Positions 42,703 to 56,285 of a stretch of DNA of 64,000 bases are shown here, piece after piece. The position numbers were made by a program, and so were the translations under genes. How positions within the stretch are numbered: the first letter of the stretch is position 1; every line of letters starts with the position of its first letter. Below the pieces are notes generated by a model. It was not told the origin of the DNA. It searched no databases and saw only the letters and a list, made by a program, of their open reading frames with translations. The stretch is from Patescibacteria group bacterium (lineage in GTDB: Bacteria; Patescibacteriota; Dojkabacteria; J137), in contig BOLA01000001.1 in NCBI GenBank assembly GCA_016861265.1, forward strand, positions 598,229 through 662,228. The letters run 5' to 3'.

Positions 42703-43422
42703 TTGAGCCTTGCTATTTTTGATTTCATAAACACAGCTTTTTTGCCTGAATACTGTATAACTTGCAACAAGTTTGGGAGCTATATTTGCAAAAATTGTCT
42801 TAAGACAAAGTATAGAGTTAATTTTAGAAATGTCTGTCATGTGTGTGGCCGAAATAGCTTTAAACTCCGTTTACACAAAGACTGTATTGACTATTCTAAT
42901 CTCGACAACTTATATTTCTTTTGTGAATATAACTTTGCAGCGAAAGAATTAATTGAGACTATAAAATACAGTGGTAATTATGCTATTTTGAATACTTTAT
43001 CGTGGCATATGGCAAAATATATAAAAATGGTTTGCCCTGAGTACAAAAAGTTCCAGTTTACTTATGTTCCATCGCATTGGACAAAACAGAATATTCGAGG
43101 TTTTAACCAATCGCAGCTATTAGCAAAGGATATAGCTAAGCTATTAGAAGTAGAACTATGTGATGTACTTATAAAAAACAAAGCGACAAGTAAGCAAGCC
43201 GGAACAAACAAAAGTCAAAGAAGTAGAAACCTTAAAGGTAAGTTTGCAATAAAAAAAGATATCGTATCAAGAAATGTTATGATTATAGATGATGTTCATA
43301 CTACAGGGGCAACTCTTAATGAATGTGCGGCAATTCTCAAGTCAAATGGTGCCGAAATTGTTTATGGATATGCGTTTTCTAAGTCTTTGAATTACTCTCA
43401 AAACACCATAGAATACCGTTAA
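42703..43422 (+). CDS. comFC: ComF family phosphoribosyltransferase (ComFC-like)
   Basis: N-terminal Cys4 zinc finger (CITCNKFGSYICKNC...CHVCG) and a C-terminal PRTase motif (VMIIDDVHTTGATL). Confidence 0.8.
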   Translation: MSLAIFDFINTAFLPEYCITCNKFGSYICKNCLKTKYRVNFRNVCHVCGRNSFKLRLHKDCIDYSNLDNLYFFCEYNFAAKELIETIKYSGNYAILNTLSWHMAKYIKMVCPEYKKFQFTYVPSHWTKQNIRGFNQSQLLAKDIAKLLEVELCDVLIKNKATSKQAGTNKSQRSRNLKGKFAIKKDIVSRNVMIIDDVHTTGATLNECAAILKSNGAEIVYGYAFSKSLNYSQNTIEYR

Positions 43423-43425
43423 CTG

Positions 43426-43434
43426 TGGTATAAT
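43426..43434 (+). promoter_or_regulatory. extended -10 element (TGG-TATAAT) about 40 nt upstream of the proposed tmRNA 5' end
   Basis: TGnTATAAT seen directly, overlapping the comFC stop region. Confidence 0.4.
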
Positions 43435-43476
43435 ATTATTAGGCATTCGCTAATAGTACAAAACTTTGTGTTGTAA

Positions 43477-43928
43477 GGGGATGCTTTTTAGACAGTAAAC
43501 CTGCATATTAAAAATCAAGTCGGAATTTAGATTATTTGTTCCGTAAAAATAAGTAATCACCAGTAATGGTAAATGACTATAAACGTCAATCAAATTAAAA
43601 CAGCTGTATCAAACGCAGTTGCTAATGTAAAGGCAGCTTTTGCTCCTCAATACAACCTAGCATTTGCTTAATTTGAGCAGTCGTTAATCGAAAAAAAGAG
43701 TAGATTAACCGTTTTTTAATTTCTCTTCCAGTGGAAATTACTAAACGACACTTAGCTGGAACGCAAAATTTATTCTTAGTTTACGAATAGATTCCAAGTT
43801 TAGGTAGACTAGAGTATTTGGTGTTTTGCTAGTTTTAAGCCTTTTACTCTTAAACAAAAACTTGTCTAAGCTTGTAAGAACTTTTAATGTGAGATTTGTT
43901 GGACAGGGATTATCCCTCATCTCCACCA
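43477..43928 (+). ncRNA. ssrA: transfer-messenger RNA (tmRNA, SsrA), about 450 nt
   Basis: 5' GGGGATG pairs with 3' CATCTCC-A-CCA to give a 7-bp acceptor stem with the G3:U70 alanine identity pair and an encoded CCA. An internal tag-like reading frame (...GCA GTT GCT AAT GTA AAG GCA GCT TTT GCT CCT CAA TAC AAC CTA GCA TTT GCT TAA) would give (AV)ANVKAAFAPQYNLAFA*. A hairpin terminator follows at 43929-43960. No protein-coding signal beyond a spurious antisense ORF. Confidence 0.55.
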
Positions 43929-44002
43929 AAAGGGCATCTTTAATTTTATTAAAGGTGCCCTTTTTTGTTATCATTGATGTGCATCTAAATTTAATACAAC
44001 AT

Positions 44003-44887
44003 ATGGACATAACTATCACCCTTTTATATCAGCCAATTTTCAACTTAATAGTCGTTTTTTATAGATTCTTTGGAGAGAACTTGGGTGTCGCAATTATCCT
44101 AATTGCCTTACTTTCCAGACTAATAACTGTACCAATTCTTGTAAAGCAACGAAAATCAATGGTTAAAAACCGTGAATTTACAGAAAAAAGAAAAGAATTA
44201 GAGAAAAAACACAAAAATAATAAAGAAGTATTAGATAAAGAAATGATGGCTTTGAATTCTGAATATCTGCCCGGACAATTAGCAGGTTGTCTTCCTATTA
44301 TTCTGCAGCTAATCTTCTTTATTAATGTTTACCAGGTTATTACTAACCTAATTATGCATGGAGCAGAGGCATTTAATAGTTTAGCCTATCCTGCAGTCGG
44401 CCAATTTCCAAGCGGATATCAGTTAAATTATTCATTCTTAGGAATCTTCGATTTAGGTAAAGCTCCTGCAAATTTCTCTAGCGATGGATTAGTCTTCTTG
44501 CCTTATTTAATTCTAATGATTCTAGTAGGTATTACACAGTATTACTCAATGAAGATTACAATGAACATGAGTAAAACAAGTACTACAGAGAATAAGACTA
44601 AGTCAAAGGAAGATAAGAAGAAGGACAAAAGTAAATCTAATCCTGCCTCTGAGGACTTTGCTGAGATTTTGCAGCAATCAACACAACAAACAATGCTATT
44701 ATTTCCTGTTCTTTATACATTCCTTTCGTATAACTTCCAAGCTGGGTTGGCAATATACTGGATTGTTCAGAGTGGTTTTGTTATAATCCAACAGTTCTAT
44801 ATTTCGTGGTTAGATAGGCGTGCAAAGGCAAAGGAGCAAGACTTGGTTCAGCCTGAAGCAATAACTGTAAATGTAAGACCAAAGTAA
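44003..44887 (+). CDS. yidC: membrane protein insertase YidC/Oxa1 family (short, monoderm-type core)
   Basis: The core begins LLYQPIFNLIVVFYRFFGENLGVAIILIALLSRLITVPI, followed by a charged loop and C-terminal TM helices with a basic tail. The track ORF begins at a TTG at 43826 but runs through the tmRNA terminator hairpin, so I favour ATG 44003. Confidence 0.75.
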   Translation: MDITITLLYQPIFNLIVVFYRFFGENLGVAIILIALLSRLITVPILVKQRKSMVKNREFTEKRKELEKKHKNNKEVLDKEMMALNSEYLPGQLAGCLPIILQLIFFINVYQVITNLIMHGAEAFNSLAYPAVGQFPSGYQLNYSFLGIFDLGKAPANFSSDGLVFLPYLILMILVGITQYYSMKITMNMSKTSTTENKTKSKEDKKKDKSKSNPASEDFAEILQQSTQQTMLLFPVLYTFLSYNFQAGLAIYWIVQSGFVIIQQFYISWLDRRAKAKEQDLVQPEAITVNVRPK

Positions 44888-45646: not shown

Positions 45647-47002
45647 ATGCTAAAAGATTATTATGAATTGTTTATGGATCAGAATTTAACTCCTACACAG
45701 CCAAATACTAACCCTGTTAGTGATATACAGCCACATTTGCCGTTGGCATCTGCACCTTCTCCTGTGCAGCCTGCTGCACAAGCTCAACAGTCCGCAGTAA
45801 TACCGAGTACAGAGCCAATAACGGTTTCGAATAAGCCAACACAGAATCAATTAGATGAGGCGGCGCAGGGGGCCGATGCTTACGATATGAATGTATTCGA
45901 TGAAATTACACTTTTAAAGAAAAAAGTGGCAGAGGCAAACTTACCTCAAGCATTAAGAGAGAAGGCACAAGGTATGATTTTAAGATTGGTAAAAATGTCT
46001 CAAAAGGGAAATTTTTCCGCTGAATTTGAACCTGTCTCTGAATACATTAATTGGATAATTAAAATTCCCTTTGGACAATACACCCAAGACAACATTGAGA
46101 TTGATACTGTAAAAGCTACACTTGATAAGTACAATTATGGTCTTGAGCCGGTGAAAAATAGAATACTAGAGTATTTAGCGGTATTAAAGTTACAAAATAA
46201 AACTAATATTCAGGTCGAAACTAGCGAATTAAGTATATCCGATGAAATGAAGAGACTCCAGGGTAATTCTTCTCATGCACCAATTCTTTGTTTTGTGGGA
46301 ATTCAAGGGGTAGGTAAAACGTCTATAGCTAAGGCTATTGCCACAGCATTGGATAGAAAGTTTATGAGATTGGCTTTAGGAGGAATGGGTAATGTAACAG
46401 AAATTAGAGGAATTCCCAGGGGTAGCGAAGGAGCAGAGCCAGGTCAAATAATAAAATCATTAGTGCGAACTGGAGTAATGAATCCTTTGATTCTACTGGA
46501 CGAAATTGACAAAACAAGTTCTCAGAGTGGCGTTAGGACAGATGTCATGGCAGCTTTGCTTGAAATTTTAGATCCGGAGCAGAACTCGACATTCTCTGAT
46601 AAATATTTAGATTACCCAATAGATCTATCTAAATGTATATTTATTTGTACGGCAAATAACTTAGGAGGAATCACGGCTGCTTTGCTAGACCGTCTTGAAG
46701 TTATACGTTTCGGCAGTTATACCGACAGTGATAAAGTTATGATCGCTAAAAATTATCTACTGCCAAAAGTTCGTGAGGCTACAGGGTTGGGAGAAGATCA
46801 GTTAGCCTTTGCAGATGACGTATGGCCTACAGTAATTAGACCTCTGGGCTTTGACGCGGGAGTTAGACAACTGGAAAGAACTTTAACAGAACTAGCAAGA
46901 AAAGTGGCATTGCAAATTGTTAGGGGCACAGCTAAAAGTGTAACAATTACGAAGGAAAATTTTAGAGAGTTTATTCCAGAAGATATTGGAGTTTATTCAT
47001 AA
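45647..47002 (+). CDS. Lon-like AAA+ ATPase lacking both the LON N-terminal substrate domain and the S16 protease domain
   Basis: The AAA+ module is collinear with Lon: the N-terminal helical end, Walker A (ILCFVGIQGVGKTSIAKAIA), MRLALGGMGNVTEIRGIPRGSEGAEPGQIIKSL, Walker B (LILLDEIDK), ALLEILDPEQNSTFSDKYLDYPIDLS, LLDRLEVIRFGSYTD and GVRQLER. The ORF stops exactly where the protease domain would begin and is followed by its own terminator. The N-terminus is a Pro/Gln-rich low-complexity region. Confidence 0.7.
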   Translation: MLKDYYELFMDQNLTPTQPNTNPVSDIQPHLPLASAPSPVQPAAQAQQSAVIPSTEPITVSNKPTQNQLDEAAQGADAYDMNVFDEITLLKKKVAEANLPQALREKAQGMILRLVKMSQKGNFSAEFEPVSEYINWIIKIPFGQYTQDNIEIDTVKATLDKYNYGLEPVKNRILEYLAVLKLQNKTNIQVETSELSISDEMKRLQGNSSHAPILCFVGIQGVGKTSIAKAIATALDRKFMRLALGGMGNVTEIRGIPRGSEGAEPGQIIKSLVRTGVMNPLILLDEIDKTSSQSGVRTDVMAALLEILDPEQNSTFSDKYLDYPIDLSKCIFICTANNLGGITAALLDRLEVIRFGSYTDSDKVMIAKNYLLPKVREATGLGEDQLAFADDVWPTVIRPLGFDAGVRQLERTLTELARKVALQIVRGTAKSVTITKENFREFIPEDIGVYS

Positions 47003-53382: not shown

Positions 53383-53709
53383 ATGAGTAACTTACTTTTT
53401 GTCTTTTACTGGTGGTACGTAATACTAGTAAAAGAATTCTGGCGAAGCTATGTATTGGGTAGATTAGTTTATAACTTGAATCTAACAAATACTTTGCCCA
53501 TGGCAAAGCATATATCGGATCCATTGTTCCAGGACGATTCCGGTATCGGCAAATCTTTCGGTTTTATTATTAGATTTATTTGGATAGGAATTGGATCTTC
53601 TATTAGTGTAATCGTAACAGTTCCCTTCTTCATTTTTGGAATATTTTTATTGGTATTGCCCTTATTACCGTTAATACAATTAGTTACATACTTAAATACA
53701 TTATTATGA
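53383..53709 (+). CDS. small polytopic membrane protein, 4-nt overlap with (likely translationally coupled to) the Clp-like ATPase
   Basis: Three hydrophobic helices. ATGA overlap with the next start. Confidence 0.4.
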   Translation: MSNLLFVFYWWYVILVKEFWRSYVLGRLVYNLNLTNTLPMAKHISDPLFQDDSGIGKSFGFIIRFIWIGIGSSISVIVTVPFFIFGIFLLVLPLLPLIQLVTYLNTLL

Positions 53710-56285
53710 ACGGTAAGGTACTACTAGCAAAATACAAAAATTCAAGAATATTCGTAGACTTTGGTTCACTTACATTCTTTAAGGGAGATAAACATGCTCT
53801 TTACAAACTTGAACAGAATACAGGAACCTTATTAGAAATATTTACAGCACTTCTTTTTGGAATACCCATTGTTATTCAAATCTTGAATGGAGAACTTAAT
53901 CTCTTGAATTTTTTGATACCCGATAATCTACTAAACTATTTGCCGTATATAGGTATCTACACATTTATTTTTGCAAGATTTTTAAAGCGAGATAGGAATA
54001 AATTCGATGAGGCGGTGAAAAACTATAATTTGCTTGCTGTAAATAAGAAAATTGAAGCGGGTGCTGACATGGAACTTACTGTAAATCACTACATTGACTT
54101 TGAAACACTTACAATATTAGATAAAGCTTTGGCAGATAAGGAAAGAGCTTTTATAGTTACATTATGTAAACTACTAACAGAAGATACAGAAATTGAACAC
54201 TTCTTAGCAAACAGATTAGGTATTAATAGAGATAAGTTTATAGAAGTTGTAAACCATAATAGTCACAATGCAAATTTCACACTAAATAATGCTTATAGAA
54301 CTTTATTTCTTTACTTGTTCGATGAAGCCCTAAAGCTTGAATCTAATACTATTAATAAGTTCGTATTATTCTTTGTTTTAAATAAATACTTTTTGAAAAA
54401 TATTTATTTTGACCTAGGTGTAGCAGAATTGGAATTAGAGGGTTTGAGAATTTGGTTTAAGAATGAAACAAAACAAAGAGAGTACTATATTAAGTGGGAA
54501 AGACTATCAAAATTCAAACCAAAAGGAGATGTTAATAGGGCATACACATCTAGACCTACACCAGTATTAGATGAGTATGCGGAAGATTTAACAAGTCAGG
54601 CTGCACTTGGTTTATTCATGTTGTCCGTGGGCAAGGATCAAGAATTGAATAGGGTTGTAGAAATTATGGAAAGAGACAAGGCGAGTGCATGTATGATTCT
54701 CGGAGATCCGGGCGTTGGAAAAACCAGATTCTTAAGGCATTTAGCAACAAGAATGGTTGTGGAAGATATTCCAGGTAGACTCTATGATCACAGATTGTTA
54801 TCCATTGATTTAAATAAAATCCTTACTAAAATTGGTACAGTTGATTCGTTTAAGCAGGTTCTTCAGAGAATTTTTGAAGAGGTTCGTTACTCAGGAAATG
54901 TGATTCTAGTACTTGAAGAATTTAGTCAAATACTTAACATAAGAGAAGAATCGAAACTGGAGGTTGTTAATTTGATTGTAAATGCAATAAATAATTTAAA
55001 CCTAAGATTAATTGCTACTTCTAATAATTCAAGTTATTCAAAATATGTTAAACCGTTAAAATCACTTTCCGCGTTGTTCGATGTTGTAGAGCTTAAGGAG
55101 CCATCTTCAAATGTAGCTCTACAAATTCTAATCGATGAGGTTCCAAGAATTGAGAAAAAATACAAAGTGAGTGTAAGGATTAATTCTTTAAAAAGAATTG
55201 TAGAATTTGCACCAAAGTTCGATCAGGACAGAGTAATGCCCGATAAAGGTATAGATCTATTTGAAGAGGCCTGTTTAGCAGCAAAGAATAGAGGGTTAAC
55301 ATTCCTAGATGTGTCAACGGTTGATGAAATTCTTTCTGAAAAAGTAGGTGTAAAAGTAGGTAATTTATCTGAAGGGGAAAGTCATACATTAATGGCTATG
55401 TCGGAACGAATGCATGACAGAGTTATTGGGCAGAATGAGGCTGTAGATGCTGTCGCATCTGCAATTAAAAGATCTCGTTCAGGACTGACAAATACTAAAA
55501 AACCAATTGCGTCATTTTTATTTTATGGACCTACTGGTGTTGGGAAAACAGAAGTGGCTAAAACTTTGGCCGATGTCTACTATGGCAGTGAAAACTTATT
55601 GATCAGACTAGACATGTCGGAATATCAGGAAGATCAAAATCTTAATAGAATTATTGGATATACCGATGACAAAGGCAATTTTATAGGCGGATACTTGACT
55701 GAGTCAGTCAGATCAAGACCTTTCTCGTTGGTGTTGTTGGACGAAATAGAGAAGGCTAATAAAAAGGTCTTAGATCTATTCCTACAAGTTTTAGATGAAG
55801 GTACTTTAACTGATGGTTTAGGTCGAAAGGTAGATTTTACTAATACCATAATAATTATGACTTCAAATGTAGGTTCTGACTTAATTGCGAAAGAAATCTA
55901 CGAAGGTAAAAAATACCACGATGTGGAAAAAGATGTGACAAATAAACTAAGGGAATCTTACAGGATTGAATTTTTAAACAGATTTGATAAATTAATAATG
56001 TTTAGACCGTTATCAAAAATTGAGATTGAGCAGATTGTGATGCTGATGTTGAAAAAAATAGATGATAATTTAATGCAAAAAGGAATTGGTATTTCCTGGA
56101 ATGAGGCAACTTTGGTAGAATTAGCAAACCTTGGTTATAGCGAGATGTTTGGTGCAAGAGAATTAAAAAGAATTGTGCAGGAAAACATAGAGAATAAATT
56201 AGCAGATTTAATAATTCAGGGTAAACTACGAAGCGGTACAGAAGCAGTTTTTAATGGATTAACTGTACAACAAGTGGTAAATTAA
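53706..56285 (+). CDS. Hsp100/Clp-family double AAA+ ATPase (ClpA/ClpC-type, no long M-domain) with an unusual N-terminal region containing hydrophobic segments and Clp_N-like repeats
   Basis: D1: Walker A (MILGDPGVGKTRFLRHLA), EDIPGRLYDHRLLSIDL, NVILVLEEF, PDKGIDLFEEAC. Linker: HDRVIGQNEAVDAVASAIKRSRSGL. D2: FLFYGPTGVGKTEVAKTLA, LIRLDMSEYQED, SLVLLDEIEKANKKVLDLFLQVLDEGTLTDGLGRKVDFTNTIIIMTSNVGS, C-terminal GARELKRIVQ. The N-terminal 280 aa hold two hydrophobic helices and ELTVNHYIDFETLTILDKAL-type Clp_N repeats. No [LIV]G[FL] ClpP-docking tripeptide is visible after the TSNVGS block. Confidence 0.75.
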   Translation: MNGKVLLAKYKNSRIFVDFGSLTFFKGDKHALYKLEQNTGTLLEIFTALLFGIPIVIQILNGELNLLNFLIPDNLLNYLPYIGIYTFIFARFLKRDRNKFDEAVKNYNLLAVNKKIEAGADMELTVNHYIDFETLTILDKALADKERAFIVTLCKLLTEDTEIEHFLANRLGINRDKFIEVVNHNSHNANFTLNNAYRTLFLYLFDEALKLESNTINKFVLFFVLNKYFLKNIYFDLGVAELELEGLRIWFKNETKQREYYIKWERLSKFKPKGDVNRAYTSRPTPVLDEYAEDLTSQAALGLFMLSVGKDQELNRVVEIMERDKASACMILGDPGVGKTRFLRHLATRMVVEDIPGRLYDHRLLSIDLNKILTKIGTVDSFKQVLQRIFEEVRYSGNVILVLEEFSQILNIREESKLEVVNLIVNAINNLNLRLIATSNNSSYSKYVKPLKSLSALFDVVELKEPSSNVALQILIDEVPRIEKKYKVSVRINSLKRIVEFAPKFDQDRVMPDKGIDLFEEACLAAKNRGLTFLDVSTVDEILSEKVGVKVGNLSEGESHTLMAMSERMHDRVIGQNEAVDAVASAIKRSRSGLTNTKKPIASFLFYGPTGVGKTEVAKTLADVYYGSENLLIRLDMSEYQEDQNLNRIIGYTDDKGNFIGGYLTESVRSRPFSLVLLDEIEKANKKVLDLFLQVLDEGTLTDGLGRKVDFTNTIIIMTSNVGSDLIAKEIYEGKKYHDVEKDVTNKLRESYRIEFLNRFDKLIMFRPLSKIEIEQIVMLMLKKIDDNLMQKGIGISWNEATLVELANLGYSEMFGARELKRIVQENIENKLADLIIQGKLRSGTEAVFNGLTVQQVVN

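Follow-up and report, generated by a model that had tools for sequence, protein, structure and literature searches.

What occupies the gap between comFC and yidC in the genome of a Candidatus Dojkabacteria bacterium, and can it be a genuine gene if the T-arm of its product departs from the norm? The stretch of DNA analyzed comprises 64,000 nucleotides of contig BOLA01000001.1 (positions 598,229 to 662,228) and is called the window in the following. An initial annotation, made from the letters alone, had placed in this gap an unannotated transfer-messenger RNA (tmRNA; gene ssrA), and the match to an RNA family model, the covariation of paired positions and the computed fold bear this out. We estimate a probability of about 90% that positions 43477-43928 of the plus strand are the ssrA gene of a Candidatus Dojkabacteria bacterium and that their product would be a one-piece tmRNA of the standard form, active in trans-translation.

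The Rfam model RF00023 covers 43477-43928 (+) end to end (model positions 1-374) with 64.0 bits, compared to a gathering score of 47, and with E=1.1e-22. This is the sole tmRNA match in the 64-kb window, and its ends are exactly those proposed from the sequence. The search with a covariance model that the initial annotation had named as a check, and in which a missing match was to count against the gene, thus scored above the gathering threshold. The elements of the RNA are as follows.

43477-43928, plus strand: mature tmRNA (SsrA), 452 nt, one piece; from RF00023, covariation and the z-score of the fold
43477-43483, plus strand: 5' strand of the acceptor stem, GGGGAUG, pairing with 43918-43924; G3 is part of the G·U identity pair
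43484-43493, plus strand: shortened D-loop analogue CUUUUUA, then the conserved GAC; 7 nt between G7 and GAC, with no G
43493-43520, plus strand: 5' strand of the long helix P2, pairing with 43870-43901 (20+5 pairs)
43521-43558, plus strand: pseudoknot PK1, stem 1 CGGAA/UUCCG, stem 2 GAUUAUU/AAGUAAUC
43585-43671, plus strand: tag frame of 28 codons, VNQIKTAVSNAVANVKAAFAPQYNLAFA; resume codon GUC 43585-43587, stop codon UAA 43669-43671
43683-43709, plus strand: extra hairpin GUUAAUC/GAUUAAC between tag and PK2; from covariation
43710-43861, plus strand: pseudoknots PK2 (43710-43761), PK3 (43767-43811) and PK4 (about 43812-43861); from covariation
43905-43917, plus strand: miniature T-arm AGGGA-UUA-UCCCU of 13 nt instead of 17, with five stem pairs, a loop of 3 nt and no TΨC motif; from the sequence
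43918-43928, plus strand: 3' strand of the acceptor stem, CAUCUCC, with discriminator A (43925) and encoded CCA (43926-43928); from the sequence, RF00023 and covariation

Fold of the RNA and its conservation among relatives

Fifteen relatives were collected, mostly by means of the conserved comFC-ssrA-yidC synteny and for the rest by a pattern scan. For the synteny route, contigs encoding YidC homologues at 78-52% identity were used and led to eight loci; the homologues of the window's YidC as a whole span 98-30% identity. In all eight, ruvX/yceG and comFC are followed by 500-700 nt free of genes and then by yidC, rplY and a gene for a Lon-like AAA+ protein; a tmRNA is present in every one of these comFC-yidC gaps. 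The gathering score of RF00023, which is 47, is reached in six of them; the other two are L017 (3394-3850, 46.9 bits) and L014 (3482-3923, 27.3 bits). When 13 relatives were scored with this model, 11 came to 48-92 bits and two stayed under the gathering score.

The pattern scan of species-representative genomes with GGACNGGGN{2,8}CCCNCNNCTCCACCA gave at least 119 loci and is no census. Among the matches listed, most either occurred by chance in GC-rich genomes or were arms that lack one nucleotide of the canonical length. The scan also yielded at least seven further clade members, all of them metagenome-assembled genomes (MAGs) of Patescibacteria, as well as the outgroup L069 and several other tmRNAs from the candidate phyla radiation (CPR). 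A scan of metagenome contigs allowed a gap of 9; canonical 17-nt T-arms fill the matches listed (at least 120), and it is uninformative on the short class.

The lineages sampled reach as far apart as 72% GroEL and 52% YidC identity. The best named matches of the window's GroEL (up to 88% identity) and YidC are from Candidatus Dojkabacteria (CPR/Patescibacteria). L016/L120, L023, L032, L069, L108, L116 and L130, whose GroEL or YidC groups with Ca. Dojkabacteria, carry the NCBI title "uncultured Candidatus Saccharibacteria bacterium"; the record titles are unreliable for the class-level taxonomy of these MAGs. At the locus itself, four independent metagenome assemblies are base-for-base identical, which rules out an assembly artefact. 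The organism is present in the read sets SRR25083410, SRR14787577-79, DRR258780 and SRR10052522.

The acceptor end shows the features of alanine identity, namely seven base pairs, G3·U70, a discriminator A and a 3' CCA. Both strands (GGGGATG at 43477-43483 and CATCTCC-A-CCA at 43918-43928) lie where the initial annotation had seen a 7-bp stem with a G3:U pair. All seven pairs form in each of the 15 sequences, none of which deviates from G3·U.

A structure derived by hand was tested for covariation on a MAFFT alignment of 15 sequences. The test comprised 100 pairs of the acceptor stem, P2, PK1, H5, the extra hairpin, the pseudoknots PK2 and PK3, and stem 1 of PK4; stem 2 of PK4, a proposal made by eye, is outside this count. 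In the native register 82.7% of the cells are paired, compared to 39-50% after a shift of the 3' partners by 1-3 columns. Changes on both sides were found for 69 pairs, and in 500 shuffles none of the measures was ever reached. For P2, 82-100% of the cells are paired and 13 pairs changed on both sides. Stem 1 of PK1 is paired in 100% of the cells with compensatory changes in all five pairs, and stem 2 in 69%, with five pairs changed on both sides. The extra hairpin, an insertion relative to RF00023, is 87% paired, and again five pairs changed on both sides. The corresponding values are 89-96% for the PK2 stems, 67-82% for the PK3 stems and 67% for the first PK4 stem, with nearly all pairs changed on both sides; PK4 is probably part of the fold. 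The fold is supported by covariation across the relatives. Furthermore, the minimum free energy structure of the window's RNA has -114.1 kcal/mol (z=-4.05 compared to shuffles) and recovers the acceptor stem, the T hairpin, P2 and several hairpins unaided.

The miniature T-arm and the failure of gene finders

The atypical T-arm with a short loop, noticed in the initial annotation, is indeed present as AGGGA-TTA-TCCCT at 43905-43917, and T-arms of this kind occur in every sampled clade member. The variants are listed by arm, with stem strands and loop separated by hyphens.

AGGGA-UUA-UCCCU: window and L007
AGGGG-AUAA-CCCCU: L009, L011, L012 and L130
AGGGG-GAAA-CCCCU: L015 and L017
AGGGG-GGAA-CCCCU: L032 and L098
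AGGG-GUAA-CCCU: L108
AGGG-GUUA-CCCU: L016 (L120 is the same genome)
AGGG-UUCG-CCCU: L116
AGGGGC-GACC-GCCCCU: L023
AGGG-GUCACA-CCCU: L014

The arms are 12-16 nt long, compared to 17 nt for the canonical form; their loops have 3-6 nt, many of them being GNRA or UNCG tetraloops, and none contains the UUCRA motif. The closing pair alternates between A-U and G-C across the clade. Because the short T-arm is conserved in the clade with such compensatory changes, it does not count against the tmRNA call. The D-loop analogue is reduced as well: in all members 6-7 nt without a GG doublet separate GGGGAUG from GAC, and the segment UU(C/A)GAC beside P2 is kept. In E. coli, the D-loop analogue has 11 nt including GG. 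Neither a 7-nt TΨC loop nor a GG in the D-loop analogue was thus found in the window gene or across the clade. As the 7-nt TΨC loop is missing, a feature outside the functional definition, the gene is filed as a variant and not as a typical tmRNA.

The outgroup L069 has a 6-nt T-loop (UUCAAU) and an 8-nt D-loop analogue, and other CPR tmRNAs have UUCRAU-type loops and D-loop analogues of 8-9 nt; taken together, this suggests that the erosion of the two loops was stepwise and coupled. The tRNA-Asn and tRNA-Pro encoded in the window keep normal T-arms with GGUUCGA(A/G)(U/C)CC. A separate tmRNA (86 bits) lies in L122 (CAZDEH010000009.1, 3327-3727, plus strand; 36% GC at the locus), a MAG labelled Gammaproteobacteria; this label looks doubtful. 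It has a 5-nt T-loop (AGGGC-UCAAU-GCCCU), a 28-aa tag as read by eye (ANLKSFASQMQARALGVFGNGYAPAYAA) and an adjacent smpB, and is ARAGORN-negative. Short T-loops may thus occur outside Dojkabacteria as well.

Since the TΨC loop is replaced and the D-loop analogue is shorter by 4 nt including the GG, the tertiary contact of D-loop and T-loop that makes up the elbow cannot form. The sites of m5U54 and Ψ55 are likewise absent, given that the T-loop is devoid of the UUCRA motif. The T-loop of tmRNA and its helix have been described as highly conserved in a review (PMC1168896), and no description of a tmRNA without T-loop was found in the literature searched, the coverage of which was incomplete. 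It is plausible that the elbow contact is dispensable in this clade, or else that contacts with SmpB or the ribosome have replaced it.

The reduced loops affect detection. ARAGORN, the other check proposed in the initial annotation, reported no tmRNA in the window and two tRNAs only, and none of the 18 other clade loci tested was found either; seven of eight control tmRNAs with canonical loops were detected. The window gene was then edited in silico. The native sequence and the versions with either the T-arm alone or the D-loop analogue alone restored were all negative. With both restored, ARAGORN found a tmRNA with correct ends and a mis-called tag. Because the restoration of both canonical loops makes the gene detectable, the negative ARAGORN result is not evidence against it. 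L014 and L017, which are below the gathering score of RF00023 and ARAGORN-negative, would therefore be reported as having no tmRNA by default pipelines. With ARAGORN negative and two of 13 relatives under the Rfam gathering score, the tmRNA will often be missing from annotations of Dojkabacteria. A tmRNA database paper of 2025 lists 5,275 Patescibacteria tmRNAs from 6,765 genomes, its main pipeline being based on ARAGORN and BLASTN; sequences of the clade may already be contained in the tmRNA database or in Rfam.

Tag frame, proposed function and surroundings of the gene

The internal frame that the initial annotation had read as ending in YNLAFA-TAA is present at its 3' end as CAA TAC AAC CTA GCA TTT GCT TAA, with the last nucleotide at 43671. 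It holds up among the relatives: the long frame is open over 26-31 codons in 16 of 16 clade sequences, starts with VN… and ends in LAFA, YAFA, LALA, NFAA or ALAA. The resume context, UAAAC followed by GUC AAY (43580-43590), is kept in the same 16 sequences; A at -4, A at -2 and C at -1 of the resume codon are each conserved to at least 90%. Variable sites are distributed over the codon positions 1, 2 and 3 as 7, 4 and 13 in six close relatives, and the tags of the window and L007 differ by four synonymous codons and one non-synonymous codon. The same kind of resume site is seen in a tmRNA of Nealsonbacteria, whose tag according to ARAGORN begins with GUC AAC (VNLFEKEPALALA). A tagged chain would accordingly be expected to end in A-VNQIKTAVSNAVANVKAAFAPQYNLAFA, the part after the alanine being coded from 43585.

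In the proposed mechanism, RNase P would remove a leader of ~35 nt, the transcript would be trimmed at its 3' end, and alanyl-tRNA synthetase would charge the tmRNA with alanine. Delivered by SmpB and EF-Tu, it would then enter the vacant A site of a ribosome that has stalled, and translation would resume at GUC 43585 and stop at UAA 43669. The acceptor and T-stems, which provide the surface for EF-Tu, are retained, and the hydrophobic/Ala C-terminus …LAFA would serve as degron for an AAA+ protease.

The gene is flanked by the following elements.

42703-43422, plus strand: ComFC-like phosphoribosyltransferase, upstream neighbor; Pfam Pribosyltran (6.9e-08) and DZR_2, a double zinc ribbon (1.1e-04)
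43426-43434, plus strand: extended -10 promoter element TGGTATAAT; exact, read from the sequence
43928-43970, plus strand: intrinsic terminator, in which a hairpin of 17 pairs precedes a U-run (found at 43928-43964); one terminator-like site, compared to 0.6 expected in shuffles
43741-44019, minus strand: antisense open reading frame (ORF) of 92 aa, spurious; lies across the terminator, the start of yidC and the tmRNA's 3' half
44003-44887, plus strand: YidC membrane insertase, 294 aa, downstream neighbor; Pfam 60KD_IMP (4.9e-35)

The Pfam matches agree with the identity of both neighbors as initially annotated, and the extended -10 element and the hairpin terminator right after the CCA were likewise recovered. 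In eight of 14 relatives, TGnTATAAT precedes the mature 5' end by 51-57 nt, and a hairpin with U-run also follows the CCA in most relatives. Transcription would start at about 43441-43443, leaving the leader mentioned above.

Two AAA+ proteins are encoded further downstream. The Lon-like protein at 45647-47002 (+; 451 aa) consists of an AAA+ module with the Lon lid and contains neither the Lon protease domain nor the LON N-domain; its N-terminal ~200 residues include a P/Q/A-rich stretch of low complexity. In relatives with contigs of sufficient length, a gene of this kind (401-448 aa) lies two genes downstream of ssrA. The protein may be of relevance for the handling of tagged proteins. A ClpB/ClpC-like AAA+ protein of 859 aa is encoded at 53706-56285 (+), and its first ~300 residues look hydrophobic and have no Pfam match.

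Several observations weigh against reading 43477-43928 as a functional tmRNA gene with a 28-codon tag. H5 and the first PK4 stem, which are 35-67% paired and lie in badly aligned regions of the MAFFT alignment, are weakly supported. No smpB was found in the 64-kb window or in any clade locus when SmpB of E. coli, B. subtilis and T. thermophilus was compared by phmmer with all ORFs (all E>0.8). A profile of six CPR SmpBs gave, among the best 120 matches listed, exclusively Parcubacteria-type proteins and no Dojkabacteria SmpB. The SmpB partner is therefore assumed. Within ~4 kb of ssrA, smpB is absent from every Dojkabacteria-clade locus (L007-L017, L023, L032, L098, L108 and L116), whereas it adjoins ssrA in six other CPR loci (L025, L087, L091, L107, L110 and L121). 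For E. coli, the contact of T-loop and D-loop has been reported to be required both for the binding of SmpB and for function (PMC3968760), and a tmRNA devoid of it might be impaired. Finally, RF00023 puts the consensus resume codon at GUA 43569, from where a second frame (VNDYKRQSN*) with a plausible UAAUG context can be read in the window's own subclade.

This last point leads to the alternative that the tmRNA is real and uses the short frame, so that the tag would be (A)VNDYKRQSN with a stop codon at 43596-43598 and the YNLAFA frame would be a coincidence. UAAUG before GUA resembles the resume context UAGUC before GCA of E. coli, and N-D-…-Y loosely recalls ANDENY. We consider this alternative highly improbable, however: position 43569 and the stretch upstream of it are replaced in L012, L014, L016 and more distant relatives, whereas both the long frame and GUC AAY with its UAAAC context persist in them, and GUA 43569 was rejected as resume codon on this account. 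Moreover, the short tag ends in …QSN without a hydrophobic/Ala degron, the third-position bias fits the long frame, and the tag called in Nealsonbacteria has a resume site of the same kind as the long frame.

The missing smpB, the reported need for the loop contact and the rejection by ARAGORN would also be compatible with a decaying, non-functional relic, in which the missing T-loop and the missing GG in the D-loop mark a pseudogene of a reduced CPR genome that relies on another rescue route. A relic is very unlikely, as it would not be expected to keep 69 covarying pairs and four pseudoknot regions across 72% GroEL and 52% YidC identity, together with a promoter, a terminator, an unchanging G3·U and a frame that stays open for 26-31 codons and shows third-position bias. 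The loops, too, are often stable GNRA or UNCG tetraloops, which argues for selection of a capped helix rather than for drift. That the region encodes the antisense protein of 92 aa (43741-44019, minus strand) and that the resemblance to a tmRNA is incidental has a practically negligible probability. This is the longest ORF in the comFC-yidC gap, and gene callers do call a 77-aa form of it, though exclusively in contigs of the identical strain. Neither this ORF nor the antisense ORF at 43450-43593 has a Pfam match; no ORF like it was seen in the relatives compared, antisense ORFs in this stretch reaching at most 45 aa in L007, 35 aa in L009 and 27 aa in L011; and it overlaps an RNA that covariation supports, a terminator and the start of yidC. 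Without a Pfam match and without conservation in the closest relatives, it is spurious, as the initial annotation had held. In annotations of Dojkabacteria, such a spurious ORF is called in place of the tmRNA.

For the reading as a functional tmRNA, the question arises how far it extends. It is about an even chance that every sampled member of the broad Dojkabacteria clade runs trans-translation with an elbow-deleted tmRNA, that is, with a bare tri- or tetraloop and no GG in the D-loop. If this is true, the tmRNA elbow is not required by SmpB, RNase P and the ribosome, or these partners underwent co-evolution in the clade. The tmRNA of the clade would then be systematically absent from ARAGORN-based annotations, and some reported "absences" of tmRNA in CPR would be artefacts.

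Comparison with known tmRNAs and tRNAs

Nearly all bacteria carry ssrA. The gene is thus an ordinary and expected component of translation quality control; the elbow-less tRNA-like domain and the long tag make it a variant. With the standard one-piece tmRNA (RF00023, E. coli) it shares the acceptor stem with G3·U70, A73 and CCA, tandem G·A pairs, the long P2, a PK1 before the resume codon, a tag ending in hydrophobic-Ala-X-Ala plus UAA, and three downstream pseudoknot regions. It differs in the T-loop of 3 nt (3-6 nt in the clade) instead of 7 nt and in the D-loop analogue of 7 nt without GG. It is also longer (452 nt compared to 363 nt in E. coli), contains the extra hairpin between tag and PK2, and has no adjacent smpB. 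Its tag of 28 codons is about three times as long as the usual, that is, most frequent tag of 10 aa (PMC11915505).

Other CPR tmRNAs were compared from Nealsonbacteria (L025 and L086), Ryanbacteria (L107), Wolfebacteria (L110), MAGs labelled Saccharibacteria (L087 and L091) and Patescibacteria (L121). They are one-piece molecules, too; their acceptor stems are GGGGAUG/CAUCUCC or resemble it, and the GUC AAC resume site recurs in some of them. In contrast to the Dojkabacteria clade, they keep a T-loop of the UUCRAU type and a D-loop analogue of 8-9 nt, mostly with GG. Their tags have 10-27 aa, smpB is located beside ssrA in six of seven, and ARAGORN finds five of six tested.

A loss of the elbow is known from another system. 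Metazoan mitochondrial tRNAs with reduced T-arms have lost the canonical elbow of T-loop and D-loop, and these molecules still need aminoacylation, EF-Tu and the ribosome, as the tmRNA does. In the tmRNA, however, the T-stem is whole and the loop alone is miniaturized, the ordinary tRNAs of the organism are canonical, and no specialized EF-Tu is implied. The clade is a natural experiment, in which a tmRNA apparently manages without the T-loop motif and the D-loop/T-loop contact. It bears on the recognition of the tRNA-like domain by SmpB, RNase P, the enzymes that modify the T-loop, and the ribosome.

The closest parallel to the tag is provided by the long-tag tmRNAs of mollicutes, which keep a normal T-loop. 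Both groups have reduced genomes of low GC content and a tag of about three times the usual length that ends in …AFA, and the phyla (Mycoplasmatota and Patescibacteria) are unrelated. The window's tag comprises 28 codons plus the charged Ala and ends in NLAFA; the tag of M. pneumoniae, a species that has no ClpXP and degrades tagged proteins mainly by Lon, has 27 aa (PMC8403727). A further difference is that the sole Lon-like gene of the window encodes no protease domain. The tag is unusually long probably because the protease preference is a different one, as in Mycoplasma, and its mollicute-like form may mean that a protease other than ClpXP recognizes it. The 28-codon tag of the Dojkabacteria gene parallels the long tag of Mycoplasma, which is read mainly by Lon, and hints at a different protease specificity in another lineage with reduced genomes.

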